Shown here: positions 1 through 61,300 of the stretch, piece after piece
How the letters are laid out: each line of letters opens with the position of its first letter
How positions within the stretch are numbered: the first letter of the stretch is position 1
From: Flectonema sp. DT1601
Taxonomy: Eukaryota
Reading direction: 5' to 3'
Assembly (NCBI GenBank): GCA_964019425.1
Contig: OZ025785.1
Coordinates: 1-64,000 of the forward strand
DNA: 64,000 bases
Notes under the pieces: model-generated
Database searches by the model: none
The model's input: the letters and a program-made list of their open reading frames with translations, nothing else
What the model was told of the DNA's origin: nothing
Program-made: the position numbers and the translations under genes

Positions 1-3000
1 AGGGAGGGTTGCCTGTCACAGGCGATCTCGGCCCTAGACGCGCCGCCGCCAGCAGAACGAACCGAGAAGGTGCTGGAGCAGATGCGCACCCTACACCCGA
101 GGGCGAGCGGACCCCCATCGGCCACGGCAGGGCAGGAGGTGCAGATAGCAGAGGTGGAGCTGCTAGCATGCCTACGCTCCTTCCACAGGGGGTCGAGTGG
201 AGGGCCTTCGGGCCTCGCGCCGCAACACCTGAAGGACGTGGTGGAGCGGGGTGAGGTGCCGGGGCTGGTAGCCTCGATCACGGAGGTGGTGAGGATTCTG
301 GCGAACGGGAGGGCGCCGCGGGAAGTAGCGCCGCTGCTGGCGGGGGCGAACCTGACGGCGCTGGAGAAAGAAGGGAAGCCGGGGGAGCACCGGCCAGTCG
401 CGGTGGGGGAAACATGGAGGCGGCTGGTGGCGAAGATCCTGTGCGGGGCATACAGGTCCCAGGCGAGGAGCTCGTTGCTAGAAGTGAGACAACTGGGAGT
501 AGCGGTGTCGGGGGGAGTGGAGGCGGCGGTGCACACCCTGCATGAGTTCCGCGCGGAGCACGCGCTCTCGTCACAGAAAGTGTTCGTGAAGATAGACTTC
601 TCGAACGCCTTCAACTGCGTGAAGAGGGGGGCGTTCCTGGATTCGACGAGGGATACCCTGCTGGAGAGCTGGGTCAGCTGGTGTTACGGAGCGCCGACGT
701 GGTTGCTATTTGGGGACGAGAGGCTGAGCTCGGAGGAGGGTGCTCAGCAGGGGGATCCGTTGGGTCCCTTGCTGTTCTCGTTGGCAATCAAGCCGGCGCT
801 GCAGAAGGTGTTAGAGGCGAAGCCGGAGTTGGCGTGCTTCTACCTGGACGATGGGCTGGTGGCGGGCACCCTGGAACAGGTGGACAAGGCCCTCCAAATC
901 CTGCAGAAGGAGACGGCGGAGCTGGGGCTGACGCTGAGGCCGGACAAGTGCCAGACACACGTGCTCGACTCAGCCCAGAACACCCTGCCCATGGGGTGGG
1001 GGTTGGAGGGGATGAGACCCCCACTGTACAACGGGGACTTCCTGGGGGCACCGTTCGGGACGGATGAACACTGCCAGGAGTTCGTCGACAGGAAGGTGGC
1101 GCAGCTGGAGAAGAAAGCGGAGCTGCTAGCAGACCTGCAGGACCGGCAGGTGGCCATGGTGCTCCTAAGGCAATGCATGGGCTTCTGCAAGGTGACCCAC
1201 CTGATGCGATGCTGCACGCATGGGAAAATGGACACCTCGATGCGGAAGGTGGACGAGCTGATGAGGTCCACGGCGAGCCGAGTGTTGGGCCTGACACTGG
1301 AGGGGCCAAAGTGGATGCAGGCACAACTGCCGACCCGGATGGGGGGATTGGGGCTGCGGTCATGTGCAGAGCACAGGGGAGCAGCACTACTGGGATCCCT
1401 GGAGTTAGTCCAAGGGGTGAGCAAGTCACTATGGGAGGGGTTCAAGGGTGTGCTGATGCCAGCACTGAAGAAGGGGTTGAACCTCGCCCTCCCGGAGGAG
1501 CTAAGGATAGAAGAAGACGGGCCCGGGCCGAACCCCCAGAGACTGTCCTCGGCGAAACTGGACCAGGTCAAGAGAGACTGCCTGCTGGCGGGGGCGGATG
1601 ACCCGCGCGATAAAGGGAGGCTGCTCTCTCTGCGCATGGATAAGGCGAGCGCATGGCTGCAACAAGCAGATGAAGAGTGCGCGATGGACCCAGAGACGTT
1701 CAGGATCGCATGTGGGATGCGATTGGGCGCAGCGCTGTTCGCAGAAGGGGCAGTATGCAGGATATGCTCAGGCCCGCAGGATAGGCAGGGATACCATGCC
1801 TCGATCTGCATCAAGAACGGGCACGTGCACCAGCGACACGAGAGGGTGAAGGAGGAGTTCATCTCCATCTTTAAGCAGGCGGGATTGCCGCTGCTGAGAG
1901 AACCCAGCCACCTACTGGGACCCAACAAGCAGAGACCGGGGGACTGGTACTGCCAAGAGGGGCTGAGGGAGGGGAGAGGCAGAGCCTTCGACATCACGGT
2001 GGTAAACCCGGGGAAAATTAAAGTATATAAAACCCCGGGGCAAGCCGCGAGAGAAGCAGAGTCCCTGAAAGGGAACAAGTACGCGGAGCAGTGCACGAAA
2101 CACGGGATTAATTTCTCGACAATCGCGCTGGAAGCGTACGGAGGGATGGGACGGGAAGCTGTGGGGACCCTGAAGAAGTTGGTGCAGATCTGCGCAACGA
2201 ACTCGACGGTGCCACACCGGGAGATCGCGGGGGAGATGGCGAGGAGGATCTCGACATCGGTGGTAGTGGCGACGGCGGAAGCACTGAGAGCGAGGGAGGC
2301 GTCGGTGGCGATGGACTCGGTGAACCCATTGCCAAGGACGAAACCGCCGCCCGAGATGACGGAGAAGCCGACACCACAAGAGAGAGAACCAAGACCGAGA
2401 GCGGAAACGGAAGAGATCCAGCAGCCGGAAGCAATGTTGCAGTCGGCAGGACCGAACCCGACGATGAGTGGTTTGCCGAACATCGGGAACTCCTGCTACC
2501 TCAACGCGTCCGTACAGTGCCTGCTGAAGGGCACGGCACTGACACAAGTGCTGACGGGGAAGGAGGAAGTGGGGATGTCGGGCCTCCTGAGTGGAGTGGT
2601 CAAAGGGAGTGGGGAGTGCCTGGAGAAGCTGTCCAAGATGTTCGACCCGCTACAAGACAGGCGGCAGGGGGAGGTAGTAGGAACCCTGACGTCCATAGTA
2701 GACGCCCTGTTGGAGGAGAAGAAAGAGGAGTGCGAACCGTTGTTCTCGGCAGTACAGCTGAAACAGCTGGTCTGCACGGGATGTGCGGACGCCTCCGGAT
2801 CGACGGATGAGTTGACGCTGATCCCACTGTGTGGCCGTACACCACAAGTGAGGCTTCAGCCGACGAAGGAGAGAGTCGAGCGGTCCTGCGAGAAGCTGTG
2901 CGGCAGCAATGAGGCCACGTTGGAAGAGAGTTTCGCCTCGCTCCCAAGCTCCTTGATCTTCCAGAGAGACAAGCAGGACACGCAAGGGTCCTTGGGATGG

Positions 3001-6000
3001 GAAGAGCGCTTCCAGGTGCAGGTCGGGGAGAGGGTGATGACGTACCAGCAAACGGGAGCGATCGCACACCTCGGGAGTGACAACGCGGGGCACTACGTGT
3101 CATACACGTGGGACGGAGTAGGCTGGCAGAAGCAAGACGACAAGGCAATAAGCCAAGTGTCGACAGAGGAGATCCACGGTACGAGACCAGTAGTAGTGGT
3201 CTACTCGAGGGTAGAGGGATCGACCCAAGAGGACGTCGGGGTGCCGGTGAGATGGATTCCGGTGGCGAACAAGGACCGGATGGAGGTACGCGAGGCACCG
3301 CCGTCGGAGGAGGACACCGCGGGGTACACGTCCAGGGAAGAGGCGGAGTGTGTCCTCCGGACGCGAGTAATAGGGGGGCAGGCACAGCGCAAGCTGCTCC
3401 TACTGGTATCGAGCGTCTGGAACGCGGAGATGGAGAAGCTGGGGGCGGCGGCATGCCTGATACACATGGGAACGCTCGACAGGAGGTTCACGTGGTCGGG
3501 CTGCCTACCGACATGGGACGAAGCGACGGCGGAGTACGTGGCAGCGCTGCTAGGGCTCAACGCGATCAGGGAGAGATCGCAACTGCTGGGGGGTGAGACA
3601 CAGATCGAGGTGGTCACACCGCAGCAGGGGTGGGGAGTCGAGCAGCAGGAGGCGCTGAAGTTGGTAGCGCTCCCGTCGGTGATAGAACACCAGGTGACGG
3701 AAAGCCCCCGAGGGGTGGAGAACCTGGCCCTCTGGGAAGCGGAGTCGGCGGCGTGGGACGAGCCGGTGGAGCTCTCGGAGGACGGGCTCGACTACCTGGT
3801 GATCGAGCTGGAGATGAATCTGGGGCTGTCCCATTTGAGGGGAAAGACGGCGGAACCGGTTGAATCCCAGTCGCTCCCGGGAGGGTCGACGGCGTCAGGC
3901 GAAGACAGACCACGAGCCGAAGCGCCGGCCCAGGAGGAAGCGCGGACGACGGACGCACAAGGAGCGGAAGCAGTAGGGCTGAGAGACGAGCCAGCACAGG
4001 AAGTGGGACAACCCGAGGAAAAAGAGCACCCACCCCCCGACCCCCCGTCGAAGGAGGAGAAGCTGTATGCGGTGGCGGTGGGATGGAAACCGGGAGTGTA
4101 TGCATCGTGGGAGGAGGCGAAGGCACAGACGGAAGGGTGCCCGAATGCGACACACCAGAGTTTCTCCTCCAGGAAGGAGGCGGACAGGTTTGTAGAGAGG
4201 TGGCAGCCGGAGACCAGGGAACCGACCCGGGCCACGGAGGGAGTCAGCCCACGTAAGTGGTACGCAGTGGCGAGGGGCAGGGCGGTAGGCCTGTTCCAAT
4301 GCTGGAACGAGGCGAACTCGATGGTGTCAGGCTACGCGGCGGCGAGACACAAGAGTTTCGCAAGCAAGGGGGAGGCGGAGGGATACCTCCGAACCCACCT
4401 GCTGGGGGAGGTGGTGGGGGAAGTAGGGACGAGGTACACCTTGGTGTACGCGTGCGAGGTAGACCCGGTAACGGGCCGTCTGGGGGCGGCGGCGAGCTGG
4501 CTGGACACACACCGGTTCGAGGTGTTGGGCACATGGTCAGCTGGCCTGCCAGCGGGAGACACACACGGGGGGCGATACTTCGCAGCCCTGGTGGGGCTGG
4601 TAGCGGCCAAGGCGTGTGGAGGCCTCGTCCCAGCGGAGGCATCCCTGCTGCTGCGAGGAAGCACGACACACTGGTCGACGGACCAGAGAGAGGTGCTGGA
4701 GGAGGCGGATTTGATGGGGAGGCGTACGACGCTGGTGGAGATGCCAGAGGGGATGAGAACACACGCGACGGAGGAGGCGGAAAAAGCGGCGAAAGAGGGC
4801 TCGACCTCAGTGACGGAAGCCGTGATGAAGGTTTTCACAGAGGGGGCAACGAACTGCCTGGGACACGGGACACGGACGGGGAGTCCCTTCACGGTGCGGT
4901 GGGAGGGAAGACAACTGCGTCTGGAACCCCGGTACACGGAAGGGGGGACGGGATCGTCAGGCGGCCGAGAGTCGGTGGAAGGAGAAGACGCGAGGGTGGA
5001 GGGCCGAGACGAGCAGAGCCCGGTCCCAACCCCGAAGGGGGCTGTACAAAGGGTAGAGGCGGGAGTCCTGGAGTTGAGCTCGGAAGGGTCGGAGGGAGAT
5101 GACGATAGATCATCCTCCCCAGCGACAGGGCAGGACGAAGGGAACGGTTCCATGTCGGGAGGCTCCTTGGGGAGTCCAGGGACGTCGGACATGGAAGCGG
5201 AAGAACAGACGGACGAAAGGGACCAGTCCGTAGACCCGTCGGCAGCAGAAACCTCAGGCGAAAACCATCACCTGGCCGAGGACCTGCAAGCCGAGAAGGG
5301 GGACGAGCTGGACGAGACGTCCCACCACTCAGGAGAGCCACCGTCGTCAGACGGCATGGACGGAGTGGAGGGGTTGGAGGACCTGGAAGACTCACAGTCG
5401 GAGATGGAAGTCGACGGAGAAAATGTGACGGAAGGGTCAGTAGTCCAGTACGTCGAGGAGACGTCAGAGGACGTGGTCCAAGTGGCAGAGTCGGACACAG
5501 AGGAGGAGGGATCGTCAGACTCCCAAATGACCATGACGGTCGATGAACAGGAATGGGAAGAGGGAGCGGCGCCCGAGGGGAACGCAGGTCAGATGGCCTG
5601 GATGCTGGGACTACACCCAGAAGGGGGGAACGCGGAAACACGACGGGAGGGCCAATCGGAGCCCCTTTCAAAGCTGGTGAACTCAGGCGAAACAAAACCA
5701 ATGGCCGAGAGATCCAGTTTGGGGGCGAAGATGGGACCACGCGCAGTGGGTAGTGACGGGAGCGGGGAAGACGCAGAGAGATCGCCGGGCACGGTGTCGA
5801 CACCGAGCACGAGAGGGAGGACGAAGTACAGAAAGGGAATGGAGGAGGAGAGGGAGGAGTGTGTGTCGCCGAAGACAAATACGGGAAGGGGACGCACGAG
5901 AGGCCGGAAGGCAAAGACGGGGGCAAAGGGGGCCGGAAAGGAGGACCCAAGTCCGCAGGTGTTGCAGGCGGAAATGGGAGAGTCCACCCCGAGCTCAGGT

Positions 6001-6432
6001 GAACGGCAGGCGAGGAGGAGGTACAGGAAGGGAGAAGAGAGGGAGAGGATAGAGGTTCTCTCCCCAGACCCGAGCAGGAAAGCGAAGAGGAAGAGACGCA
6101 AGCAGAAGGAACCGGAGCCAGTGGAGGGCACCACGAGGGAACAGGCGCCGCGGAGTTACAACAGGAAACCCACACTGCGTCGGGTAGGTAAGGGAGACAC
6201 ACCCGACACAATGGGGTACGCACACGGGCCCCCGGGCTCCCTGACCTCGTTCACGGACGCGGGCGTACGCCCGGAGCCGGCGGAACGAGACGGACAAGGT
6301 GTGGCAGGAGCAGAGTTGGTCACAAGGTCGTCGTCACAGAGTGAGAAAAGCACCCAAGGAGAGATGAGGGAGAGAGAAGGGGATCCAACGCGAAGGGTCC
6401 TGGACTTCTCGTCGAAAGGGGGAAGGCGCTAG
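1..6432 (+). CDS. Retrotransposon polyprotein (5'-open): RT, zinc knuckle, RLE, USP/UCH peptidase C19, RNase H-like fold, two RNase H1 hybrid-binding (Cauli_VI-like) domains, second RNase H-like fold, acidic/basic disordered tail
   Basis: Frame is open from base 1. RT motifs: RPVAVGE..RRLVAK, DFSNAFN, QQGDPLGPLLF, YLDDG (841), QLPTRMGGLGL. CxxC..H...C at ~1756-1809. RLE motifs: RH, RPGD, FDITV, E..K, F..IALEAYGG. USP Cys box GLPNIGNSCYLNASVQCL (~2470) and His box HLGSDNAGHYVSY..QDD (~3067-3141). Two YAVAxG..G.Y..W.E...G...H.SF...EA motifs (~4060-4200, ~4255-4392). Confidence 0.9.
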   Translation, partial: REGCLSQAISALDAPPPAERTEKVLEQMRTLHPRASGPPSATAGQEVQIAEVELLACLRSFHRGSSGGPSGLAPQHLKDVVERGEVPGLVASITEVVRILANGRAPREVAPLLAGANLTALEKEGKPGEHRPVAVGETWRRLVAKILCGAYRSQARSSLLEVRQLGVAVSGGVEAAVHTLHEFRAEHALSSQKVFVKIDFSNAFNCVKRGAFLDSTRDTLLESWVSWCYGAPTWLLFGDERLSSEEGAQQGDPLGPLLFSLAIKPALQKVLEAKPELACFYLDDGLVAGTLEQVDKALQILQKETAELGLTLRPDKCQTHVLDSAQNTLPMGWGLEGMRPPLYNGDFLGAPFGTDEHCQEFVDRKVAQLEKKAELLADLQDRQVAMVLLRQCMGFCKVTHLMRCCTHGKMDTSMRKVDELMRSTASRVLGLTLEGPKWMQAQLPTRMGGLGLRSCAEHRGAALLGSLELVQGVSKSLWEGFKGVLMPALKKGLNLALPEELRIEEDGPGPNPQRLSSAKLDQVKRDCLLAGADDPRDKGRLLSLRMDKASAWLQQADEECAMDPETFRIACGMRLGAALFAEGAVCRICSGPQDRQGYHASICIKNGHVHQRHERVKEEFISIFKQAGLPLLREPSHLLGPNKQRPGDWYCQEGLREGRGRAFDITVVNPGKIKVYKTPGQAAREAESLKGNKYAEQCTKHGINFSTIALEAYGGMGREAVGTLKKLVQICATNSTVPHREIAGEMARRISTSVVVATAEALRAREASVAMDSVNPLPRTKPPPEMTEKPTPQEREPRPRAETEEIQQPEAMLQSAGPNPTMSGLPNIGNSCYLNASVQCLLKGTALTQVLTGKEEVGMSGLLSGVVKGSGECLEKLSKMFDPLQDRRQGEVVGTLTSIVDALLEEKKEECEPLFSAVQLKQLVCTGCADASGSTDELTLIPLCGRTPQVRLQPTKERVERSCEKLCGSNEATLEESFASLPSSLIFQRDKQDTQGSLGWEERFQVQVGERVMTYQQTGAIAHLGSDNAGHYVSYTWDGVGWQKQDDKAISQVSTEEIHGTRPVVVVYSRVEGSTQEDVGVPVRWIPVANKDRMEVREAPPSEEDTAGYTSREEAECVLRTRVIGGQAQRKLLLLVSSVWNAEMEKLGAAACLIHMGTLDRRFTWSGCLPTWDEATAEYVAALLGLNAIRERSQLLGGETQIEVVTPQQGWGVEQQEALKLVALPSVIEHQVTESPRGVENLALWEAESAAWDEPVELSEDGLDYLVIELEMNLGLSHLRGKTAEPVESQSLPGGSTASGEDRPRAEAPAQEEARTTDAQGAEAVGLRDEPAQEVGQPEEKEHPPPDPPSKEEKLYAVAVGWKPGVYASWEEAKAQTEGCPNATHQSFSSRKEADRFVERWQPETREPTRATEGVSPRKWYAVARGRAVGLFQCWNEANSMVSGYAAARHKSFASKGEAEGYLRTHLLGEVVGEVGTRYTLVYACEVDPVTGRLGAAASWLDTHRFEVLGTWSAGLPAGDTHGGRYFAALVGLVAAKACGGLVPAEASLLLRGSTTHWSTDQREVLEEADLMGRRTTLVEMPEGMRTHATEEAEKAAKEGSTSVTEAVMKVFTEGATNCLGHGTRTGSPFTVRWEGRQLRLEPRYTEGGTGSSGGRESVEGEDARVEGRDEQSPVPTPKGAVQRVEAGVLELSSEGSEGDDDRSSSPATGQDEGNGSMSGGSLGSPGTSDMEAEEQTDERDQSVDPSAAETSGENHHLAEDLQAEKGDELDETSHHSGEPPSSDGMDGVEGLEDLEDSQSEMEVDGENVTEGSVVQYVEETSEDVVQVAESDTEEEGSSDSQMTMTVDEQEWEEGAAPEGNAGQMAWMLGLHPEGGNAETRREGQSEPLSKLVNSGETKPMAERSSLGAKMGPRAVGSDGSGEDAERSPGTVSTPSTRGRTKYRKGMEEEREECVSPKTNTGRGRTRGRKAKTGAKGAGKEDPSPQVLQAEMGESTPSSGERQARRRYRKGEERERIEVLSPDPSRKAKRKRRKQKEPEPVEGTTREQAPRSYNRKPTLRRVGKGDTPDTMGYAHGPPGSLTSFTDAGVRPEPAERDGQGVAGAELVTRSSSQSEKSTQGEMREREGDPTRRVLDFSSKGGRR

Positions 6433-7164
6433 GGACTCCACGAAGGAGGTCTCAAGAGCCGAGGAAAAGACAGAGCCAAGACCCCAGAGCCAACCCAAAA
6501 CACATGGTAGAGGACGAGGGAGAACAAGAGCGGGAGCGAGGTTAGAAACGTGACCAAAGCCCCCGCGAAGCAGGAGACACAACCTGCAACCAGACCCCCC
6601 CAAAAAAAAAAAAAAACCCCGGTCAACGAGGCAAACTCGGACCAAAACATGCTTTTCACCCCCCCCAGGAAACACCGACCAGTGGAGCCAAAGGCCGCAC
6701 ACATATTATAAAAATCAAAGGCCGCCCCCCAACCCAAGAAAAGGATGAAAAACTTTCAAGCGAAAAAACTTGACGTCCGTACGCCCCAGAGATCAAAGGA
6801 CGGACGACTCACACCCCCTTCTTTCGCCCCATTTTATTTACTGGTACAGCGACAAATGTAAAGCTGGGTAGACGACGAATTATCTTTTGTGCACAGAGAC
6901 AAGGGATCCATGAGAACAAAGGATCAAGAGAAGAAGGGCACATTCCCCATCCCAAACCCAGAAACATGAGAACTCATTAAATTGAAGGGTCATGTCTTTT
7001 CAAGTCGAAAAATGCTTAAATGCTGAAGAAGACTGTCGTCCCCAGCTCGCGGGTTTTCCCTGTCGCTGTATGGCGAGACAACGATCAGAGTCAGTAGAAA
7101 GATTGTACAAATTTGTTGTATAATGAGAAAGGACAAAGAAAGTAGTTTCCATTTTATCTTCCCG

Positions 7165-7201
<37 letters not shown>
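1..7201 (+). mobile_element. CRE-clade-like non-LTR retrotransposon (RT + CCHC + restriction-like endonuclease, long C-terminal extension); 5' end lies outside the window
   Basis: One long ORF to 6432, a ~730-nt 3' UTR (6433-7164) and a 37-nt poly(A) at 7165-7201. Strong G+A strand bias unlike the AT-rich host DNA. The 3' UTR is repeated at 8357-8913. Confidence 0.92.
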
Positions 7202-7206: not shown

Positions 7207-7288
7207 GGCGAGATGGCCGAGCGGTCTAAGGCGTTGCGTTAAGGCCGCAATCTCTTCGGAGGCGTGGGTTCAAACCCCACTCTCGTCA
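7207..7288 (+). tRNA. trnL-AAG: tRNA-Leu (anticodon AAG)
   Basis: Acceptor stem GGCGAGA/TCTCGTC+A, D-arm TGGCCGAGCGGTCTAAGG, anticodon stem TTGCG/CGCAA with loop TTAAGGC, long variable arm, T-arm GTGGGTTCAAACCCCAC, followed by a TTTT Pol III terminator. Confidence 0.95.
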
Positions 7289-7310: not shown

Positions 7311-7690
7311 AGAATCCATGTCCTATTGTAGTCAGCTTCTGAAAAACCGGAAACATCGATAGAGGCGGGAACTCAATAAACCTGTTTCCCTTAAAGGAAT
7401 AAAAAACATCAATCAGTGTCAAATACTTTGGTGGAAGGACATAACTTCAATTTGATGTGAGTCAACCTGCTGAAGAATGATAATTAAACTGCCCAGCTTT
7501 TGACGGTAGTGTAGTGGACTACCGTGGCTGTAACGGGTAACGGGGAATTAGGGTTCGATTCCGGAGAGGGAGCCTGAGAAACGGCTACTCAGACATTGTA
7601 CGTTGCTTGGACACCAGGCAGCTGCAGCACTTGAATCGAATGCTCAACTCCATTCAATATTTCTTTCTGTGTCCCAACTCATCCTGTACT
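7311..7690 (-). pseudogene. Heavily deleted relic of the LRR gene family (one LRR piece plus pieces of its upstream region)
   Basis: 7311-7375 matches LRR repeat DNA (tcctattgtagtcagcttctgaaaaaccggaaacatcgat). 7441-7490 and 7592-7682 match the LRR upstream region (e.g. gacaccaggcagctgcagcac...gtgtcccaactcat, cf. 16887-16962). Confidence 0.7.
7489..7588 (+). rRNA. ~100-bp fragment of 18S rRNA (not a full gene)
   Basis: Contains the conserved SSU stretch TAACGGGTAACGGGGAATTAGGGTTCGATTCCGGAGAGGGAGCCTGAGAAACGGCTAC; flanks are not rDNA. Confidence 0.9.
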
Positions 7691-8356: not shown

Positions 8357-8913
8357 AAACTCGGACCAGAACATGCTTTTCACCCCCCCCCAGGAAACAC
8401 CGACCAGTGGAGCCAAAGGCCGCACGCATATTATAAAAATCAAAGGCCTCCCCCCAACCCAAGAAAAGGATGAAAAACTTTCAAGCGAAAAAACTTGACG
8501 TCCGTACGCCCCAGAGACCAAAGGACGGACGACTCACACCCCCTTCTTTCGCCCCATTTTATTTACTGGTACAGCGACAAATGTAAAGCTGGGTAGACGA
8601 CGAATTATCTTTTGTGCACAGAGACAAGGGATCCATGAGAACAAAGGATCAAGAGAAGAAGTGCACATTCCCCATCCCAAACCCAGAAACATGAGAACTC
8701 ATTAAATTGAAGGACATGTCTTTTCAAGTCGAAAAAATGCTTAAATGCTGAAGAAGACTGTCGTCCCCAGCTCGCGGGTTTTCCCTGTCGCTGTATGTCG
8801 AGACAACGATCAGAGTCAGTAGAAAGATTGTACTAATTAACAGTATAATGAAAAAGGACGAAGAGAGTAGTTTCCATTTTATCTTCCCGAAAAAAAAAAA
8901 AAAAAAAAAAAAA
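8357..8913 (+). mobile_element. 5'-truncated copy of the CRE-like element (3' UTR + poly(A) only)
   Basis: Near-identical to ~6633-7201 with scattered substitutions and indels; ends ATTTTATCTTCCCG + A24 (8890-8913). Confidence 0.92.
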
Positions 8914-9136
8914 CACACAATGCTATTCTATTTAACACTAATTTGATTCTTTTTCAACGCTGCTATTTGTTATTTTCATTAAGAAAATGTTTTCTTTCAT
9001 TATCATTTGAAAACATCCAACTTGCAAGGTATCAGTTGTTTTTGTGATTTCAATTCTCTGTTAAGACATGATAGCTGACAATAGTAGTAAAAAGAACCAA
9101 TCATTGAAATAATATTTTCCGTACGAAATAACATTT

Positions 9137-21700: not shown

Positions 21701-21831
21701 ATTCCTTTCGGATTCAGGCTTGGGATGTTCCCTGTTCACTCGCCGTTACTGGGAGAATCGCTGTTGCTTTCTTTTCCTGTGCTGAGTGATATGCTTAAGT
21801 TCAGCACGTAGATCTTCAACTGCTGAGGTCG
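21701..21831 (-). rRNA. ~130-bp fragment of the 5' end of 28S (LSU) rRNA
   Basis: Reverse complement reads GACCTCAG...GCTGAACTTAAGCATATCACTCAGCACAGGAAAAGAAAGCAAC...CAGTAACGGCGAGTGAA, the conserved LSU 5' end. Confidence 0.88.
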
Positions 21832-22579: not shown

Positions 22580-24125
22580 GTACTTTTCCTTGGCTTGTTA
22601 AGATTGTCATGGCAATGTTTAGGCTGGCAGAGCATACTGAACAGTAATAACCGAATAGGTCAGCTGTTGCAAAAAAGAGAAAGCGTGGGAGGAATAGAAA
22701 AGAAAGAAAAAAAAAGAAAACAAAGCCCGCGACCTAGAGATGGCGTTAAGAACCTCTCGTGTCAAAGAAAAACAACCAAAGAATGTTATAAAAGGGGTTT
22801 GGGGGAAGTACGCGACCTAAACAATCAAATGTTGTGAAGAACGAGACCTTGTCCTGAAGAATTTCAGGAAGGAGAATACTCGTTTAGCTTAACAGGGAAT
22901 ACTTTAATAGTTTTGAAATTTTATTATTTCTTGATTTTTCAATTTCGGGAAATTTTTTGTGTTGTGATCCGACATTACATTAACATTGAGGAATTGGAGG
23001 TTTGACCTTTTTTTTTTCTTTTTTTTCTGTATTTTTGTTTTTTCAAAATGAAAAATACAGAAATACAAATAAAATAAAAAAGAACAAGCCTTAACTAAGA
23101 TTTATATTTTGACGTCAACCACAGTGAGTGCCAACTCTGGAATCTGTAGTGGTTTTTAAGAAAGCAGATTAATTTAGTTGATGACACTCTCATAGTTTCT
23201 GAATGGTAATTTTATTCTCTTCTCAACCCAACTCTATTCTAAATGCTAAAAAAAATCAGCGATCGACATTCTGTCAACATTCTCTCTTCATCAGCACAAC
23301 AAGTATTTATTATTATGTTTCCTTTCATCAGTTTCTTAACAACAAAACCAAAGAATTCACTTATTCGGTCCATCAAGACGAATATAAAAAAATAACAAAA
23401 TGTTGAAACTTCTAACTGGGATTGCTCTGTTAGTCTTCTGGTTCGGGTTCTTCATCGCTGGAGTTGATTACACGAATGACGGTAACGGCCCGACCACGCC
23501 TCCGTCTGTTAGGAGCCTAAAGATGGTTCTAAGAACCTCTCGCGTTATGCTGCCACGATCCTCAATTGGGTTGGTAGGTACAAAATAATAAAGCAGTGAC
23601 TAAATAAAGCAAGATGATAAGCTTGTTACAACCTAAAACCAACTGGAAGAAGGTGTTGATCTTATATTTAAAAATATATTCAACTTCCCTTTTAACGACA
23701 TCACTGCACTCCTCCAATCCCCCGACGACTTTCTTAGTCAGTTTTGTTCCTTCAGGAAACTTCTTCCTATTTCGGTCACCATCTTCAAACTGGAAACATC
23801 GATGGAGGTGAGGGACTCACAGCTATTAATAAAGTGATCGCCAACACTCGTAACTTCACTCAAGGAAGACAAATCCACGCTAGTCAGAGACCTTGAATTA
23901 TGCAAGAACCCATGCCTTACTTTAGTGAGCTTCTGAAAACCGGAAACATCGATGGAGGTGAGGGACTCACAGTTACTAATAAAGTCATCACCAATGCTCG
24001 TAACTTCACTCAGAGAAGACATATCCACGCTAGTCAGACTCTTTGAATAACCTAAGAATCCACTTCCTATTTTAGTCACCTTCTTCAAACCGGAAACATC
24101 GATGGAGGTGAGGGACTCACAGTCA

Positions 24126-24832
24126 AAAAAAAAAAAAATAACCAGTGTTTAGGGGTTTGAATCCCATGGATCCCGTCGCTCAGGCGGTCCGGTGGAGAAC
24201 CGGGTAGGGCACTGTGAACGAGTTGCGGTCCAGGTGGCGTCGGAAGGCCACCGCACCAACAGATTTGTTTCTTCGCACAACAGTAGCTTGGAGACCGTAA
24301 GAGACCCAAGGTGGTTCACAACCGCTCGAACAACCGCGTGTGAAGGAACAAGATTGAAAAGAAAAGAATATAAGAAAAGAAATGCCACACACAAAAAACG
24401 ACGTAGTAAAGCAGAGAGGTAGGGGGAGGGATGGCCTCTTTCTCCACACATTGCATGGGAGCTCCCCGAGTAACTCGCGGGGCTGATACTGTTAATACAT
24501 TTCAGGCGACCTGAACTTATAATCCCCCCATGCGTGAAAAGACTAAACGGGGGAAGTTTGAAGGAAATGGGGGTAAAGGGAAATCATGCCACTAAGGAAA
24601 AAATAAAAACCCGGTGGCCCCTGTGAGCTCTGGGTGCCTGAGTATCCCGGGCCGGATCACCTGACCTTCTGCTATGTTGTCCTTTTTTTTTTTTTTAAAG
24701 GTTAGGCTACGGAGGAAAATAAAACGGGGGTAAAAGAATACACAGCAACAACAATACGTCAGCACTCTAGTTACACACAAGGTGCATCCAGGTAACACCA
24801 CGAGGAGGCGCGCTATCCGAGTTTCGTTACCC
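24126..24832 (-). mobile_element. ~700-bp non-autonomous retroposon (SINE/RIME-like) with a 5' HDV-like ribozyme and a T-rich 3' tail
   Basis: 20-bp target-site duplication aggtgagggactcacagtca at 24106-24125 and 24833-24852; no convincing ORF; sense-strand 3' end ...CACTGGTTA-Tn. Confidence 0.88.
24760..24832 (-). ncRNA. HDV-like self-cleaving ribozyme
   Basis: Minus strand: P1 GGGTAAC/GTTACCT (G1-U wobble), P2 TAGCGC/GTGCTG, P3 GCC/GGT, L3 TCCTCGT, J1/4 GG (P1.1), P4 TGCAC/GTGTA, J4/2 ACTAGA containing the candidate catalytic C. Confidence 0.85.
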
Positions 24833-26573
24833 AGGTGAGGGACTCACAGTCATGAATAAAGTAATCTCCCACACTTGTTACTTCACTCAAGGAAGACAAA
24901 TCTACGCTAGTCAGAGACTTTGAATTATACAAGAATCCATCTCCTATTTTAGTCAGCTTCTTCAAACCGGAAACATCGATGGAGGTTAGGGACTCGCAGT
25001 TATAAATAAAGCAATTGCCAACACTCGTTACTTACTCAGGGAAGATAAATTAACGTGAGTCAGAGACTTCAGGTTGTTCAAGAACTTGCTAGGGATGGCC
25101 GTCACATTGTACAAAGAAGTGAAATCGATTGACGTCAGCGAGTCACAACCGTCTGACAGGAACACTTGCTCAAAAGCAGTGCAACGGCTGCAGTTGGTGA
25201 ATGACAACCGACGGATAGAAGACGGAAGCATCTCAATACAATCACTAGAAAGGGTGCCTTCATCGTCGATATATTCTGAGGCATCGAGGACACACAACAT
25301 GTCGGGATTTAGTCCGAACAAATTGTCAATTCGAGTACGAAGATGTGAAGTTCTCAACTCCTCCGCAGTCACAACACGTTCATACCGAGGCCATTTGTAT
25401 GTTCTTTTCACAGTACCCCAGTTGCTCGAATCTTCCAGCTCACGGAGGATCTCGGCACCCCATGAGGTGTTGTCAAATTGGGATTTGACTTCTTCCTTCG
25501 ACGAATGGGAGAGTCTCGGCCAGTCCAGCAACAGGAAGAGTTCCTTCCTGAGTTGGGCTGGGACACCCTCCTCTGTTTCACCCATGCCCAAGTAACCAAT
25601 TTGAAGTGTGTTGAAATACTCATCCTCGTTCAGCATCCAAGGGAAGCAGGTGGACGAGAATACATTCCTCAGGTCATCTTCGACCAACTCCAACTTCCCG
25701 TCCCCCTTGAGATCAGCTTTAACAAACCCGATATCGGCACACTTCATGTCAGGATGCAAGGAAAGGGTTCCCAGTAATCGCGAGCTTCCTTCCACCAACT
25801 TCGCCGACTCCTTCTCCCTCGCCACCCGGTGTACTTCCTTGTACGTCGTCAATTCAGTCGCAGCCTCAGCATCCGTCATTCCAACCATGATCTTCTCCGA
25901 CGATCTGAGAACTTCTGAAAAGCTGTCCATCAGCGCCCGACTCCTCCTTCCGACTCACCACTTCCACGAGCAGCTTCGCCATGAACCTCTGATGGCTCCT
26001 CAAAACAGAGGACAGGGAATCGACAGTTGCCATTATTTTTAACTGGATGAGTTTCTGGTGATGAAGAATTAATTCAAAGGATACGTAACTTCAATTCAAG
26101 AATGAAGGAAACTGCTTGTGAGTCAACTTCCCACTTGTCTGGAAACCACTTGAAAATTATCAGCGTGTGATGAATTACTTCGATACCATTGTACATAAGA
26201 GACACCAAGGCAGCTGCAGCACTCGAATTGAATGCTCAACTCGATTCTAATATTTCTTTCTTTGTGTCCCAACTCATATGAAGGCAGCTGTACTGTCCTT
26301 GGCTGTTGAAGTAAACAAACAATTACACAACTCACAAAAGGGATGAATAACATATCAACGGGAAGCTGTGTCCTGACTTCACTAAATGAATACATTTTGT
26401 TTTCTACTGTTGTAGTGATTCTCAAAGGGAAAACCATGCTGAGTGCAGGATTTCAGGTCTTTTAGAGGATGAAGCAGCGAGTCCTTTAAAATCATTCCAA
26501 CGACATCACTGCAATCTTCCAATCCCTTGAAATCTTTCTCAGTCAGTTTTGTATGAAATAAATAATTTTAGAG

Positions 26574-38373: not shown

Positions 38374-41300
38374 GTTAGTTAGTTAGTTAGCGAGTCCGAC
38401 ATACAATCGAGTACCGGTTAGCTAGACACAACAGGGTGGAACGGTTAACCACCTGTGAGTCCCCAATACTACGACTTTATGTCAAACCTAATCCCTGAGA
38501 GGATCACTTTTTTAGCTCCAGCGAGGAATTCTAATGTTCGAGAGACCCGAATTCCTCAATGCTTCGGCCTTGACCGGTTCGCTAGCAAATTAACAGAGTT
38601 TGGGGAGGGGAAAGGAAGATGATAATGATAATGATAAAACGAAGAAAACAAAATAAAATAAAATAAAAAAAAAAAATAAAATAAAATAAAATAAAATAAA
38701 ATAAATCAATAAATAAACAAAATAAAGGAAGGGGATAGAGAATTCAGATCTGTTGAATAATAGTAATCCTGGATGATTTTGACTGCTACTGATGTTGATT
38801 TAAGTGAATACTGCCAAAGTCACATGCCAAGGGATATATCGATATAGGACCTAGTAGGAGGTCCACGGACCCTGTGGTCAAACCATTTGGGATCAATTCT
38901 TTTGTAGTCGGCGTAGTGGATCTTATTCAAAAGATCTGTGAATTGCGTTCCCACGATACCGAGGTAGCAATACAGTTCCACTGTCCATAGATGTTCATGT
39001 ATCTCCTTGATATCGGTGCAGTCGTATGCTTGCGTGATGGCCTGCATGACTTCGGTCGTGTCATTCGGGGATAACTTTGGAAGTTTGGAGTACCTGTTGA
39101 GGTGCCACAGTAGTTTCTGTCTTGGTATGGCTACACGTAGCGGGAAACTCATTAAGTAGATGTTCAACTCCTTCAGCATGGCGGCCAAAAATGGTTGGTT
39201 GTCGGTTTCGAAGAAGGTATGATGATGCTGGCCTACATTTTCCGTATTATCTATCGGAAGAATTGGGAAGAACTTTCGAACTATCGGACTCACTCCCTTG
39301 CACTTAGAGAGGAGGTGGTGTGCATCTGTTTCGGTGTGATCACAGAATTGGCAATCGGTTAGGCCCAAACCTGGCAGCTTAACTAATTTGTGGTGGCCAG
39401 TGCGTATTTGTGCAATACTCACTTCGTCCTCCCGAGAGATTTCAGGATGAAACTTCTGTACTCTCCCAGCTGACGTAGCTAAGCAGTGTACGTGCATTGT
39501 GTCGCGGGATCTGAGCCATTCTCTTCTCACCTGGCTGATTATGGAACATTGGGCCATGCGGTAGTCGAACTCAACTTCCGTGAGCGGCAGGTCGGAAGCC
39601 GCCGCTTTGGAGGCTAGGTTGTCCGCCAATTCATTCCCTATCACACCACAGTGTGAGGGTACAAATTGAACTGATATCGGACGGTTAAGTGAGGATATCA
39701 GTTTAAATATCTCGCTGTTAGTACGCGAGGATTGGCATAGGTAGCCTTTAGCCAGGCTACTTAGCGACGACTGGCTGTCCGATATGACGTGAACGCGGCC
39801 ATATGGGAGCCGTGCTGAGTTCTCGCGGATGAGATCAAGGGCTGAGATTAGTGCGCGCTGTTCGGCGTTGTAAATCATGAGTGACGGATGGTAGCGTTGT
39901 TGCTTCTTGTAGCACTTGTTCCGGACGACGAGTACTGCTGCGTTGCCACAGTGGTAATTGCCATCCTTGTCCTCAAAATACGAAGCATCAGTGTATACTC
40001 TGGCAACTGCCGGCGGAAGAGACTCCAACGAAGCGATGGCAAATTTGAGGTTGAGTCCCGAGTCCTGTGACTTTCTGAAATCTCTGTTAGGTATAATTGT
40101 TACGTTGGGTGGTGTTAACCACGGTGCTTGGTAATGTTGTAAATACATCTGCGATCTAAGTCGGGGTGTTGGATAGCGTCTAGATGAACGCGAGGCTGAA
40201 GCTTCCCACGGAGTCTCCTCTTTGTTGCCTTTGAAGAGACCCCATGTCGGTAGATTATCATTGTATCGCTGGAATCGTTCATAGCACAGTGCTAGGGACT
40301 TAGTTAGATGTTGCTGAAACGGTAGAATATCTGACTCAACTGATACTGCTGAGGTCGACGCCGATTGGGAGCAGCCCGTTAGTCTCAACATGAGTTTCCT
40401 GTGGACCGTGCTTACGTGTGTCCATGATTTCTCGCGGAGGAATGGGGCGTATGCGGCAAGGCCGTGGAATGCCCTAGCTAGTACCAAACCATTCACCAGT
40501 TGTCTCAAAGTTTCCGTCTTGATCCTGAAGGATGAGATCATCTTTAGAAGACCAATTCCACGCTTCAGTGTGCTTTCCATTTTGTTCAATTGTGGAATAA
40601 AGGAGAGACGGTCGTCGATCAACACACCCAGATATCTCGCTTGTTCCACGCGCCTAAGAGGCTTGGCTGTAGTCATCGTTAGTGCCTTCTTACTCACTCT
40701 GCTTCGAAATTCTGAACGAGTCGACACCTTCCTTCCGTTTACAGTTAGGGGAAAGGTTGTTCCTCCATCGCGATTCAGTTGTGCTCCAGGTCCTATGTCT
40801 AAATCATCTAAAAGGTCCATCGGACTCGAAATGGACTCCAGTTTTATAGTTGATGGAAGATACAGTCTAGGGAATCTACAGAGCCCCCTGCCAGGGTCAA
40901 ACCGTGTGCCAATGGCTAGAAACTCCGTCTTCTCTATTGACAGACTCATTTCTGAGTCTACTAGCCAGCCCTCCACTTGCCGTATTGCCTCATTGGCTTT
41001 ATCCTCCAGATCACCAACTTTCGTACTGCTAACAAATATTGATAGGTCGTCAGCATATAGAAGCTTCAGATCGGCACTCTTGATCGACTGTGGTAGGGAG
41101 TTGACGTATAGTCTGAAGAGGAGAGGTCCAAGGATGCTACCTTGCGGGACACCTTTGTTACATTTGACCCTCTTCGAGAAGGATTCGCCATATTGCAGAC
41201 GGGCCGACCGGTGAGTTAAGAAATCGGAGATCCATCTAACGAAAGGCAACGGTAGGAGTGGTTTGAGTCTTGCGATTAACTTATTATGATTAACATTATC

Positions 41301-41882
41301 AAATGCACCTGAGATGTCAAAGAACAGCAAAACCCCACATCTGTTAAAATCGCTTCTTACTTCGGATGCTGCATTTGTTAAGACTGCAATGTTTTCTTCA
41401 GTAGTCCTGCCTGGGACGAAACCAGCTTGATTGGGGTCAAGGTTACCTTCCAAAATGTGCTCCAGCCGCCGGAGGATCAGAGATTCAATGAATTTAGCCA
41501 CAGTTGATGTCATCGAAATAGGACGGTACGACGATGGTTCCACTGGATCTTTTCCATTCCCTTTGAGAAATGGAATTACGTTTGCTTCTTTAAAACAATC
41601 TGGCAGAATGCCGCGCTGTAGTGACCAGTTGGCAATCCTGAGTAGGACCTCCTTCATCCCGGTTCCTAAGTGTAGAATCATGTTATTCGTGATTGCGTCA
41701 GGTCCCGCACTATCGGTCTTCCTGAGCGAGTGGAGAACGGCCTGGGCTTCTTCCAAAGAGAAGGGTTTACACTCAGGGATTTCGAGGTCTTCTGGTTTTA
41801 CTGTTGGGGACTGTGATCTGCCTACATCGTTACTTGAGGGGAAAAAACGTTCCAACAGCGTCTTCAGCGGGGCTTGTGGTTT
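38374..41882 (-). mobile_element. 5'-truncated Ingi/I-group non-LTR retrotransposon (RT + RNase H + zinc finger) with a (CTAA)n tail
   Basis: 3509-bp insert in the array spacer; tail reads gttagttagttagttag on + at 38374-38390; 187-bp flanking duplication at 38187-38373 and 41883-42069; no APE domain present. Confidence 0.92.
38820..41882 (-). CDS. Reverse transcriptase-RNase H ORF of the Ingi-like element (5'-truncated; in frame with a spacer ATG at 42104)
   Basis: SAGPDAI, YRPISMTS, QAGF, DISGAFD, GVPQGSILGP, YADD (~41057-41046), YLGV. RNase H residues YTDAS, NAE, ISDS, SHCGVIGNELAD. CQFC..H...C. Confidence 0.9.
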   Translation of the reverse strand, partial: KPQAPLKTLLERFFPSSNDVGRSQSPTVKPEDLEIPECKPFSLEEAQAVLHSLRKTDSAGPDAITNNMILHLGTGMKEVLLRIANWSLQRGILPDCFKEANVIPFLKGNGKDPVEPSSYRPISMTSTVAKFIESLILRRLEHILEGNLDPNQAGFVPGRTTEENIAVLTNAASEVRSDFNRCGVLLFFDISGAFDNVNHNKLIARLKPLLPLPFVRWISDFLTHRSARLQYGESFSKRVKCNKGVPQGSILGPLLFRLYVNSLPQSIKSADLKLLYADDLSIFVSSTKVGDLEDKANEAIRQVEGWLVDSEMSLSIEKTEFLAIGTRFDPGRGLCRFPRLYLPSTIKLESISSPMDLLDDLDIGPGAQLNRDGGTTFPLTVNGRKVSTRSEFRSRVSKKALTMTTAKPLRRVEQARYLGVLIDDRLSFIPQLNKMESTLKRGIGLLKMISSFRIKTETLRQLVNGLVLARAFHGLAAYAPFLREKSWTHVSTVHRKLMLRLTGCSQSASTSAVSVESDILPFQQHLTKSLALCYERFQRYNDNLPTWGLFKGNKEETPWEASASRSSRRYPTPRLRSQMYLQHYQAPWLTPPNVTIIPNRDFRKSQDSGLNLKFAIASLESLPPAVARVYTDASYFEDKDGNYHCGNAAVLVVRNKCYKKQQRYHPSLMIYNAEQRALISALDLIRENSARLPYGRVHVISDSQSSLSSLAKGYLCQSSRTNSEIFKLISSLNRPISVQFVPSHCGVIGNELADNLASKAAASDLPLTEVEFDYRMAQCSIISQVRREWLRSRDTMHVHCLATSAGRVQKFHPEISREDEVSIAQIRTGHHKLVKLPGLGLTDCQFCDHTETDAHHLLSKCKGVSPIVRKFFPILPIDNTENVGQHHHTFFETDNQPFLAAMLKELNIYLMSFPLRVAIPRQKLLWHLNRYSKLPKLSPNDTTEVMQAITQAYDCTDIKEIHEHLWTVELYCYLGIVGTQFTDLLNKIHYADYKRIDPKWFDHRVRGPPTRSYIDISLGM

Positions 41883-54941: not shown

Positions 54942-55957
54942 TATTTTAAACTGGATGAGTTTCTGGTGATGAAGAATTAATTCAAGATGCGTAACTTCAA
55001 TTCAAGAATGAAGGAAAACTGCTTGTGAGTCAACTTCCCACTTGTCTGGAAACCACCTGAAGAATATCAGCGTGTGATGAATTAAAACTCCGACTTCGAT
55101 ACCATTGTACACAAGAGACACCAGGCAGCTGCAGTACTCGAATTGAATGCTCAACTCGATTCTAATATTTCTTTCTTTGTGTCCCAACTCATATGAAGGC
55201 AGCTGTACTGTCCTTGGCTGTTGAAGTAAACAAACAATTACACAACTCACAAAAGGGATGAATAACATATCAACGGGAAGCTGTGTCCTGACTTCACTAA
55301 ATTAATACATTTTGTTTTCTCCTGTTGTAGTGATTCTTTGATTGTCTCACAGGCTGCTTCCTGAAACGAAAAACTACAAATCCCAATTCCCTCTCTTCAT
55401 TTCTTTTAGTTCTTTCTTCTTTTTTTTTTCTTTTTTTGTTTTTCTTTTTTTGAACCAAAACGAGGGTTTATATCTTCGTTGTGGCATAACAATCCACTAC
55501 TGGTATTCCCCAAATGCAAATATTTTGAAGAAATATATAAAAATATTTATTATAGTGAGCGCCGCATAGAATATTACTTTTGTTGTTTGTACATTATACG
55601 TTTTTATATTTTGTTTTTGGTTTCTCTCTTGCTCTTCCCGCACACTCTCTCTCCTCTCTCTCTCTCTCTTTTCTTTAGAAAGCAGTAATAAAAATAGACA
55701 AAGAAAGAAATTCTGTATTGGCTTTATTTGAGTTTACGTTTTTTTTAATTTTTGGTAACCGTATATCAGTGCATACTCATAATGACTGCAGCATCCCAAC
55801 AGGAACTACAAACATTGTTAAGGAGAAAGAACAAAACAAAACACAGCAGGTGTGGGAGAATAGTCGTAGAGTGGGAGAACTTCTCTCACAAGAAGGGTTT
55901 GTCACCTAAATCCTCACAACCAGCACCATCAGCATCGGTTTCCGTTTTTTTTTTTTT

Positions 55958-56169
55958 ATTTTAAACAACACGCATGCTCACCTTTGAAAAGAAGAAAAAG
56001 ATATGTTTGTGTTATTCCTATCCCATTCAACAAGAGAATAAGATACTGTAATCGTTGTCGTTGTTTTGTACGCAAACGGAAACAAGCCTATAAAGTAAAG
56101 TACAGATTAACAATCATTTTATATTTAAAAAAAAAAAAAAAAAAAAATGTTCTGGTTTTTTTTTTACAG
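55958..56169. repeat. Inverted copy of part of the array spacer at the array's right boundary
   Basis: Reverse complement of ~29193-29390 (and equivalents); the same peptide appears on + here (KRRKRY.CVIPIPFNK) and on - in the units. Confidence 0.85.
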
Positions 56170-58373: not shown

Positions 58374-61300
58374 CTACACGTCTGAAGTCCAATCGGAAGA
58401 GCTCTCAGAGGCGGACTCATCCATGGCCATGGGGATGTTATGAAGCTCCCCCATACCTGCTCTCCTCAAAATAGAACCAATTGTACGAGGTTCTTGTCTG
58501 TTTGTTTGTTTGTTTGTTTGTTTGTTTGTTTGTTTGTTTGTTTGTTTGTTTGTTTGTTTGTTTGTTTGTTTGTTTGTTTGTTTGTTTGTTTGTTTGTTTG
58601 TTTGTTTGTTTGTTTGTTTGTTTGTTTGTTTGTTTGTTTGTTTGTTTGTTTGTTTGTTTGTTTGTTTGTTTGTTTGTTTGTTTGTTTGTTTGTTTGTTCG
58701 TTTGCTTGTTTGTTCGTTCGTCAACAATAATAATATAAAAAAAAACATACTTATAGAAATTAGGAGACCCCCCTGGAGGTGGTGACTCGCGATTATCTCC
58801 ATCACGAGACTTGTAATGTTGAGGTGGTGATCCATATGTTGATGCCAAAGCGTTATTAAGAGTACTACTAGTAACAGTATTATTTAATGTGTTACTACTA
58901 AGGTTTACAGTGCTACTCAGAGATACATGTTGTGATAACTGCGCATGAGAAGGAGGTGGAACAGAGCTGTTGAGATGCTGAACTGAAAGCGGACGAGGTT
59001 GCTGAGAAACTGCTTTGGAATTCCACGCCCCCTGCATGTTCCTAGCAGATAATCCCATTCCACCACGTGAACTCAGGTTTGGTTTTAATTTTGGTGCTTC
59101 GCCTATCGACTCTTCTTGAGTCTTCTGCAATGCGAGTTTTGGAACTGCTATTTGACCAGAACTTCCCAAAACGAGTCTCGGTGATGTCCTCGGTTGCATT
59201 AGCGGAACATTAGCTGGGTCTTTACCACCCAATACACTTAACCATTCTTCACACTTTAATGTGTATTTATGATCTGGTCCATAAGCCTTTCTGTGACTTA
59301 TCAACGCAAGTTGAAAATATTTCACTGCCTGTTCCTGTTTTTGTTCATGTTCATAGGCGACAGCAATCTCAAAATATTTTTTAGCGACTTCCTCAGAAGC
59401 ATCAGTGTGCTCCATGGTTAACTGTTCTAAAGTACATTTATGATACTGAGACATAATGTTTAATTTCTTATAGCAGGGGGCTAACATCTCTGTTAGGACC
59501 ATCACAGCAGAGTCGCTGTGTTTGCCGTAGCTGTCTCTGAATATGCTGTAGGCCGATTCGAAACTCTTTCTGCAGAGATCAAGTCTACCTTTATGGCTGT
59601 GAATTTGACCTAAACAAATAGCGATATCCGCAATCTCTGGGGCATCTACTCCGTGAGATGTCTTCACGATCTCCAAAGCTCTTTCAAAATCTCGAGCGCT
59701 CTCTTCATATCGACACAGAGTGCAGGCTGTCCGTGCTCTCTGTTCCAGTAGCCTTCCAAGAGACTCGTCTTCCGAACCAAGTTCTTGTTCTGTTTTTTCA
59801 ATTGCTCTCGTGTAGTGACTGATGGCTTCTTCAAACTTTCCTTCTTGTTGGTAGTACTCTGCCATTGTACTGTCGATTTCTATAAAGACTACGTTGGCTG
59901 TTCCTTCGACACTCTCACCAGCTTCTAATTTCTTCTGAAGAATGCTGTACGATCTGTAGTAGTAATTAGCTGCCTGACGAAGTTCTTTGAGAGATCTAAA
60001 ATAAGATCCGAGGAGGATGTTCGCGTCAGCATGAGCTACTGATGAGGGGTCGGTTAGTTGAATCATTTGATTTCGACATTCTAAGAGTTCTTTTTGACGT
60101 ATTCCTGAAGATTGTGATTCCCATCTTTGATAAATTAATGAAAGCAACGCCAACATCGGTAACGCTGTTTCCGGTGGTGTTCTTCTTCCCTCAATGTAAT
60201 CCTGAAGGACATTCTCCATTGCTGGAAACTCTGATATATCAATACCATCTTCATCAGTATCTAACCAAGAACACTTCGTATGACTCGGTAGCTCTACTCC
60301 TTTCATGACGGGTTTTAGCTCTACTTCAGCTACTCTGGAATCAGTAGCCAGGACGATGGTTGCTCCGCATATTTCTGAAATTCGTTTAATCACTTTTTCC
60401 GCAGGCGGAAGAGTGTATTTCTTAGGACCACCAAACTTACTATAAATCTTCTTACACAGAAAGCTTGGATTATCAATCACTGCTTGCACTGCAGCCTTCG
60501 CAATCATTGTCGATTCTGCATAGTTATGACCATGCATGTGGTCATTTAAATAGGCAGAGAATGTCCTCGCAAACATCTCACTGATGACGGCTTCGACAGC
60601 AACTGGAACGTTTGTTGTTTTGTCTCTAACTGTTCTCCAATCACCATCATCAGACCATTCCATTAGATGACCTAATACAGTTCCGAGGTAGCGGAGGTTT
60701 ATTCCTTTTGAGTGAAGTGATTCTGAGAGATGATCTCCATCGAGGGGAGGTTTTCGTAATAAATTTGATGCGAATTGCGGAACTACATCTTTCATCAAAG
60801 ACTCCACAACTAAAGTATCCGTCAGTGAGATGTCTTCAGTCAAGTCTCCTTCCAAACTTTCTGATGAGAGCCCATCGCTATTCAAACCTTTTACTGAAAG
60901 CTGATCTCTTCGTATCTTACGCAACAGCTCAGGTCTAAATCGTTGGTATCCACAAGCAAATGTATAAACATGAGAGTTGACGTGATGTTTTGGTTTCGCA
61001 TGTAAAACTGTTTCATTCAACTCAATTGACAACGCAAACGTCGCAGTGGAGTCATCGACTGATCTGCTGATTCTGGAGTCGATCATTTTACTTAAAATTT
61101 CTAAAATCTTTTCCGGATCTTTAATTGTGAACCCCATACTATCTTGAATAGGATCCCAGTTGTACTTCTTAAGACAGAGAGGAGCAACATACTCGATTGG
61201 TTGATCTAAGAAATCCTGAAATATTTCAGTTGAGTTTGACGTATTCCTCAGTAACACTTTTAAACTTCTGGCGACCATTTCCATACAAAGTTGGTCAACT

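Follow-up and report, generated by a model that had tools for sequence, protein, structure and literature searches.

The locus

The window—the whole 64-kb stretch of DNA that was analysed, positions 1 to 64,000 of contig OZ025785.1 from Flectonema sp. DT1601—contains 18S and 28S rRNA fragments, a tRNA-Leu gene, an array of LRR genes and two LINE-like elements. The LRR genes form a tandem array of near-identical members of the BspA type, with 150-bp internal repeats, on the minus strand. Between 28600 and 55100, a 3291-bp unit is repeated in tandem in near-identical form, and every unit has a 615-aa ORF of the BspA LRR type; a 183-nt piece of this unit recurs, inverted, at 55952–56134. One LRR gene copy is interrupted by a short insertion, the element with which we are concerned here. 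The parts of this locus, listed along the reading direction of the host gene, are:

24833..26040 (end approximate), minus strand: 5' half of the interrupted BspA-type LRR gene copy, with frame breaks near 25030 and 25950
24833..24851, minus strand: TSD, 5' copy, 19 bp
24125..24832, minus strand (that of the host gene): 708-nt non-coding, retroposon-like insertion, from BLAST, ORF and TIR checks
24683..24696, minus strand: internal A14 run, element nt 137–150
24125..24138, minus strand: 3' tail, T14 in the sense of the ribozyme
24106..24124, minus strand: TSD, 3' copy, 19 bp
23600..24124 (start approximate), minus strand: 3' half of the interrupted LRR gene copy, Pfam LRR_5, E 4.8e-13

When the element and one copy of the TSD are removed, a continuous BspA-type LRR frame results (...DYFIHDCESLTSIDVSG...), and the restored sequence can be aligned with a paralog right through the junction, at 92.6%. 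The TSD copies are an exact 19-bp repeat, 18 bp of it by BLAST match and the 19th base by inspection, or 20 bp if the adjoining T is included. Repetitive though the host is, we take this repeat for a true duplication, because a GAC codon precedes the shared LRR core in only two of 39 core matches, the pair flanking the element, and because removal restores the frame. The host copy has further frame breaks, one near 23745 in the 3' half and those near 25030 and 25950 in the 5' half, the latter two independent of the insertion; because of them, it must be either a pseudogene or a copy that carries assembly indels.

The element has the traits of a non-LTR retroposon: a TSD is present, and coding capacity (the longest ATG ORF is 100 aa), terminal inverted repeats and LTRs are absent. 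Its ends are complementary at only six of 30 positions, and the absence of terminal inverted repeats speaks against a MITE or other DNA transposon. A Pol III SINE, with a head derived from tRNA, 7SL or 5S RNA, was also considered and rejected, the small-RNA head with its A and B boxes not being found: Rfam models gave no tRNA, 5S or SRP match to the element at E up to 10, ARAGORN found no tRNA in it, and its sense strand has no B-box pattern. No poly(A) adjoins a TSD on either strand. The body of the element has no canonical hammerhead core, no Rfam match of note and, among sense 100-nt windows, none with z below -1.6. BLAST found no second copy within the 64-kb window.

The two LINE-like elements differ from each other in kind. 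One (1–7201, plus strand) is a 5'-open non-LTR element. Its single 2143-aa ORF encodes an RT, two RNase H1 N-terminal domains, a ubiquitin C-terminal hydrolase domain and, by eye, an RLE-like motif. The element stops, with an A37 tail, 5 nt short of the tRNA-Leu gene (7207–7288), and a 3' fragment of it lies at 8357–8915 (96.6%). Both the domain set and the possible tRNA-gene targeting look unusual. The other (38374–41882, minus strand) is a 5'-truncated LINE with RT and RNase H, a (TAAC)n tail and, on its two sides, an exact 187-bp duplication of host DNA; its relatives are 43–75% identical, and three of the best four have an APE-type endonuclease domain.

Short, isolated 18S and 28S rRNA fragments lie amid LRR-gene debris at 7335–7622 (plus strand) and 21729–21808 (minus strand); thousands of scattered 28S pieces have been described in a diplonemid (PMC10161547). 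A (TTGT)56 microsatellite at 58494–58718, within the 3' part of a CLU/TPR reading frame, is probably an intron. For the CLU/TPR gene, the best cluster in the Atlas consists mostly of Euglenozoa (0.94); a sequence search returned four hits, no named close relative among them, and an Atlas search with the RT pointed to no lineage. The host lineage is probably euglenozoan, as are the trypanosomatid hosts of NARTc, RIME and SIDER.

A predicted ribozyme at the 5' end

The first 73 nt of the element can be folded as an HDV-like ribozyme, a nested double pseudoknot, on the minus strand:

24760..24832, minus strand: HDV-like ribozyme fold, 73 nt, predicted cleavage between 24833 and 24832
24794..24808, minus strand: P3/L3/P1' core, identical at 15 of 15 positions to the primer motif for the Drosophila R2 catalytic region
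24788..24789, minus strand: G44 and G45, the 3' side of P1.1
24773..24787, minus strand: P4 hairpin, weak
24766..24772, minus strand: J4/2, with the putative catalytic C at 24770 (C63)

Numbered from G1 (24832), P1 consists of 7 bp (nt 1–7/37–43) and begins with a G1-U43 wobble; J1/2 is 10 nt long; P2 has 6 bp (18–23/68–73); P3 has 3 bp (24–26/34–36) and is closed by L3, UCCUCGU (27–33); P1.1 has 2 bp (C28 and C29 with G44 and G45); and P4 has 6 bp (46–51/55–60). J4/2 runs C63-U-A-G-A into P2, and so contains both the putative catalytic C and the constrained A before P2 that HDV-like ribozymes require (PMC3774820). The 15-nt core is the motif used, in the methods of PMC3414825, to prime on the conserved catalytic region of Drosophila R2 ribozymes; it occurs exactly once in the window and in none of 100 shuffles. 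Core identity among such ribozymes can be convergent (PMC3774820).

A strict HDV descriptor, run over both strands of the 64-kb window, has one match, exactly 24832–24760. On dinucleotide shuffles, 69 of 1467 have any match, a mean of 0.053 per shuffled window. A loose descriptor gives two matches in the window against a shuffle mean of 0.61. Other measures are less kind to the fold. Its plain MFE has a z of +0.45, an unremarkable value of the sort common for pseudoknots. The scan of the whole window with Rfam does not list the ribozyme; the alignment to HDV-F-prausnitzii (RF02682), a model that holds only P1 and P3 as pairs, starts at 24832 and scores 15.5 bits against a gathering threshold of 44 (E 3.7). 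P4 is worth -3.1 kcal/mol, three of its six pairs are G-U, and in the pseudoknot-free ensemble its pair probability is 0.01–0.02; in active R2 ribozymes, P4 is described as highly variable or absent (PMC3774820). A GCAC/GUGC misfold competes for the 3' strand of P2. Lastly, the target bases U-1 and C-2 can lengthen P1 onto G44 and G45 (probability 0.26–0.51), and P1 extension of this kind is reported to lower activity in L1Tc (PMC3185411).

The initial annotation had drawn this double pseudoknot, had placed the TSD against its cleavage site, and had read the whole as a full-length short element that starts at the ribozyme's G1. All of this stands. Every helix can form at 24760–24832 on the minus strand, as the sole match of the strict descriptor; the last base of the exact 19-bp TSD is the base directly 5' of G1; and the element is, from its sequence, full-length, non-coding and flanked by a TSD. 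Structure prediction confirms 24832–24760 as an HDV-like ribozyme fold whose helices can all form and whose self-cleavage is predicted. Some SIDER folds looked adequate, according to PMC4035085, and did not cleave.

Copies in public sequencing runs

Six public sequencing runs, here X1 to X6, were found by the words of the element. X1–X4, which share words with it, were compared with the element, and X1, X3, X5 and X6 with positions 22700–26100. Two runs among X1–X4 are marine metatranscriptomes, and only one of these, X4, holds a real piece of the element.

X1 is the most informative. Four contigs of depth 2–2.8 account for ~94% of the length of the element at ~99% identity, covering 24133–24839 except for 24580–24618; three are 98–100% alike to the element, and one has 21 gap positions. 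No single contig spans the whole element, and the two junctions are on separate contigs, at depth about 2. The 5' flank reads GKGFLSYCPQL and the 3' flank CPQLTSLDL. With 17 of 18 bases in agreement, they look like a near-perfect private TSD that ends at G1. The copies of this TSD differ at -2 before G1, and it is the 5' copy that shares the window's base there; the mismatch may be an error, or donor flank that was carried along, each side being one depth-2 contig. X1 is the one run among X1–X4 with a 5' junction, and it places the boundary at G1 within about 2 nt. That other copies begin at G1, as the initial annotation expected, is borne out to this extent, by one further 5' junction with a TSD of its own. 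The ribozyme-headed element of that annotation is upheld; what it missed are the T tail on the sense strand and the target register in LRRs that the copies share.

The X1 copy has also lost 11 nt between short repeats, and J4/2 and the catalytic C with them. The contig with gaps (221 window bases, 206 record bases, 21 gaps) leaves seven unlisted deleted bases, which probably lie in the A run. In the window copy the internal A run is as long as the terminal T run, at 14 bases each; to judge from two cases, their lengths may change together and the runs may pair with each other.

The other runs add less. X4 has a 157-nt piece of the 3' end (97%) with the flank CPQITSLDL, on a contig from an RNA library that runs 101 nt beyond the tail into LRR sequence. 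The T tail is about T6 in X1 and X4 versus T14 in the window. X3 has one 151-nt internal piece, without a junction. X2 was rejected as a source of copies, its only matches being of 35–37 nt at 24290–24329 with unrelated flanks. A 36-nt stretch in that interval is matched by many short contigs, in two marine metatranscriptomes and with unrelated flanks, possibly by chance likeness to a conserved gene family. The contigs of X5 and X6, two runs labelled with the organism of X1, leave the element uncovered, and the window's LRR gene is not covered at 80% in the contigs of X1, X3, X5 or X6, an absence that proves nothing. Metagenome contigs gave no match to the ribozyme-core pattern; the 20-mer of the 3' end matched five loci there, all rejected as chance (20–21 nt, unrelated flanks, four of the five the same sequence). 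Viral contigs gave no match in either scan.

The internal A14 run raised the prospect that the insertion is composite, a 150-nt A-tailed mini element with a passenger behind it. We set this aside because a contig of X1 spans the A14 run and X1 shares the T-tailed 3' end.

A shared register in leucine-rich repeats

The junctions fall at C-E-S-L-T^S in the window and C-P-Q-L-T^S in X1, and the X4 site reads C-P-Q-I-T-S: three 3' and two 5' junctions in one C-x-x-[LI]-T-S register. Each 3' junction is 2–4 nt ahead of the Cys codon of this motif, in sense, and CTGT stands next to the tail at all three sites. Rich in LRRs as the window is, it offers such junctions at 50 sites, only ~0.2% of positions. 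The 30-nt 3' flanks of X1 and X4 are identical to the window's at only 19 and 15 of 30 positions, respectively, and the X1 and X4 insertions are therefore not at the window's locus; the TSDs of the window and X1 agree at 13 of 18 bases. Because their flanks are 26/30 alike, X1 and X4 may themselves stem from one insertion; the flank is more diverged than the element between them (Fisher p 0.024). The junction contigs have a depth of 2–3 and, since the runs were found by the element's words, two to three sites have been sampled. That junctions in further LRR sequences keep to this register suggests that site-specific insertion has happened repeatedly, and judging from these sequences it is likely that the element is aimed at a protein-coding repeat, the LRR.

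Comparison with known systems

A short non-autonomous element headed by a ribozyme is, in itself, a known kind of element; NARTc, RIME, SIDER and the R2 SIDEs are all of this kind. The R2 SIDEs and R2/R1 hybrid SIDEs of Drosophila are non-autonomous, have a 5' HDV-like ribozyme with the same 15-nt core, and occupy a fixed site in a co-transcribed multicopy gene, as the present element does; the hybrids even have a TSD, of 14 bp versus 19 bp here (PMC3414825). Identity of the core with R2 may be convergent, if the account in PMC3774820 applies. R2 SIDEs target 28S rDNA, whereas the element targets an LRR coding repeat, and they derive from the ends of known R2 and R1 elements (PMC3414825), whereas it has no parent among the two LINE-like elements of the window. 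We do not count it as an R2 SIDE: its target is an LRR coding repeat, not the 28S R2/R1 site.

The trypanosomatid elements of the L1Tc/ingi group resemble it in other ways. NARTc, RIME and SIDER are short and non-coding, their first base is the ribozyme's +1, and they are freed from host co-transcripts; the hallmark of the group is the 76–79 bp Pr77 signature (PMC4035085, PMC3820030, PMC12278014). They end in poly(dA) (PMC3820030), in contrast to T14, T6 and T6 here, and they have a conserved 12-bp TSD and cleave before C1, where the element has 19–20 bp and a G1-U wobble (PMC4035085, PMC3820030, PMC12278014). Lacking both the 3' poly(dA) and the 12-bp TSD, the element is not assigned to L1Tc/ingi. 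Several ribozymes of R2 SIDEs and Pr77 elements are described as active in vitro (PMC4035085, PMC3414825).

In its choice of target the element recalls ingi/RIME, which have a hot spot in the RHS genes: there they hit a single position within a protein-coding multigene family and make pseudogenes (PMC7563717). That hot spot is one site per gene, downstream of an ATP/GTP-binding motif, whereas the element's site is a recurring LRR unit with up to five sites per gene (PMC7563717, for RHS). The element's register is kept across LRR subfamilies that are 50–63% identical over 30 nt.

Plant p-SINEs and Au-like SINEs are Pol III elements with tRNA-derived heads. They, too, end in a T tract, for which a poly(U)-recognizing partner is only proposed, and the cited sections of PMC3747384 describe neither a ribozyme head nor a fixed target for them. 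EhSINE1 of Entamoeba is a non-coding protist element of ~550 nt with TSDs that are often 18–24 bp and T-rich surroundings; it has no specific recognition site, and a ribozyme is not described in the sections cited (PMC2996970). Diplonemid retrotransposons are listed in PMC10161547, whose cited part gives no rigorous census of non-coding elements. In the literature searched, which lay largely outside subscription journals and wholly outside supplements, Repbase and Dfam, there was no report of a ribozyme-headed element with a T tail, nor of any non-LTR element targeted to LRRs. The combination of T tail and LRR targeting on a ribozyme-headed element, of which that literature gave no report, would thus be a new variant.

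Proposed mechanism and alternatives

The drawable fold, the contact of G1 with the TSD, the orientation along the host strand, the variable T run at the 3' end and the shared register can all be read directly from the sequences. They are best accommodated, and we think probably so, by a non-autonomous non-LTR retroposon headed by a predicted HDV-like ribozyme, with a partner LINE that copies the element into one shared codon position of LRRs. Transcription would read through from the host LRR gene; sense insertion into an expressed tandem gene family would thus give the element its promoter, in the way that R2 SIDEs rely on 28S. Self-cleavage at 24833/24832 would then free the element from the host transcript, leaving a 5'-OH on G1. 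A sequence-preferring endonuclease would nick the non-coding strand 3–4 nt ahead of the Cys codon and, 19–20 nt further on, the coding strand. Target-primed reverse transcription would start on the 3' U tract, such that the cDNA begins with A, and second-strand synthesis would leave the TSD. The partner LINE would supply the enzyme, its endonuclease preferring the LRR codon pattern. Neither of the two LINE-like elements in the window shares the element's ends (best E 0.39, within the window). That the element is, more specifically, a parasite of a LINE system with site specificity, one that recognizes poly(U) at the 3' end and targets an LRR codon pattern across divergent subfamilies, is a tentative proposal, to which we would not yet commit.

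The proposed role of the ribozyme is weakened by the X1 copy, which lacks J4/2 and the catalytic C and yet keeps the same 5' end. It could be that the retroposon is as described and that an internal promoter sets its 5' end, the ribozyme being a poorly active relic from a parent LINE. The weak P4 and the flank-driven extension of P1 would fit such a relic, and there is a precedent in Pr77, which is a promoter in its DNA form and a ribozyme besides, and in the inactive SIDER folds (PMC4035085). Against this, the core positions of the window copy are all intact and match the R2 core, active R2 ribozymes may have a variable P4 or none (PMC3774820), and the X1 deletion, sitting between short repeats, can post-date insertion. 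We regard the relic as unlikely, though it deserves to be kept in mind.

The target register invites a different question: whether it is set by an enzyme or by RNA. A read-through transcript that retained donor LRR flank behind a DNA-encoded U tract could anneal to a nicked LRR repeat, in the same register, and prime copying there. This would account for the T tail and the fixed register together, it suits the CTGT beside the tail at all three sites, and the X4 contig, from an RNA library, does continue 101 nt past the tail into LRR sequence. X4 may be DNA, however; the TSDs of the window and X1 agree at only 13/18 bases, each copy keeping its own target sequence; and the fixed stagger of 19–20 bp is not explained by annealing itself. 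Targeting by RNA seems to us improbable on balance, a little more so than the relic.

It might also be that nothing is targeted, and that one old insertion reached other LRR paralogs through recombination or gene conversion. In favor of this, the host genes stand in tandem, are near-identical and have 150-bp repeats, and the X1 and X4 flanks are 26/30 alike. Conversion would bring the donor's flank with it, though, and the window and X1 differ on both sides within 6–8 bases of the element; each, moreover, has its own TSD around elements that are ~99% identical. We consider this very unlikely. An intron-like insert—its donor the GT at element nt 3, its acceptor an AG in the TSD, with the T run for a polypyrimidine tract, and removal in frame in the window with a net gain of 12 nt, or four codons—can be given hardly any credence, the acceptor being GAG, neither of the two other 3' flanks having an AG in its first 30 nt, and the host copy having other frame breaks. 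A chance fold or an assembly artefact, to which the MFE z of +0.45 and the Rfam score under gathering might be thought to point, can be dismissed for practical purposes in the face of the descriptor and motif statistics, the position at the edge of the TSD, and the presence of the element in other runs with other flanks.

Significance

Site-specific non-LTR elements are reportedly in development as gene-insertion tools, and the targets known to us are mostly RNA genes and simple repeats. If the same register is found in LRRs that are 50–63% alike, the partner enzyme would have a new and tolerant specificity. If the partner is indeed a LINE system specific for poly(U) and LRRs, this would be a retroposon aimed at a protein motif, instead of rDNA, spliced-leader genes, tRNA genes or telomeres, and its transcripts would escape by ribozyme from each host mRNA. 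Priming on a U tail, hypothesized only for plant poly(T) SINEs (PMC3747384, in the part cited), would gain an instance. Short retroposons with a ribozyme head would gain a marine protist as host, one that is probably a euglenozoan but not a trypanosomatid. For the host, finally, the element would be a direct means of losing or reshuffling members of a tandem LRR gene family, and the BspA-type LRR repertoire would be pruned or rearranged in the process.
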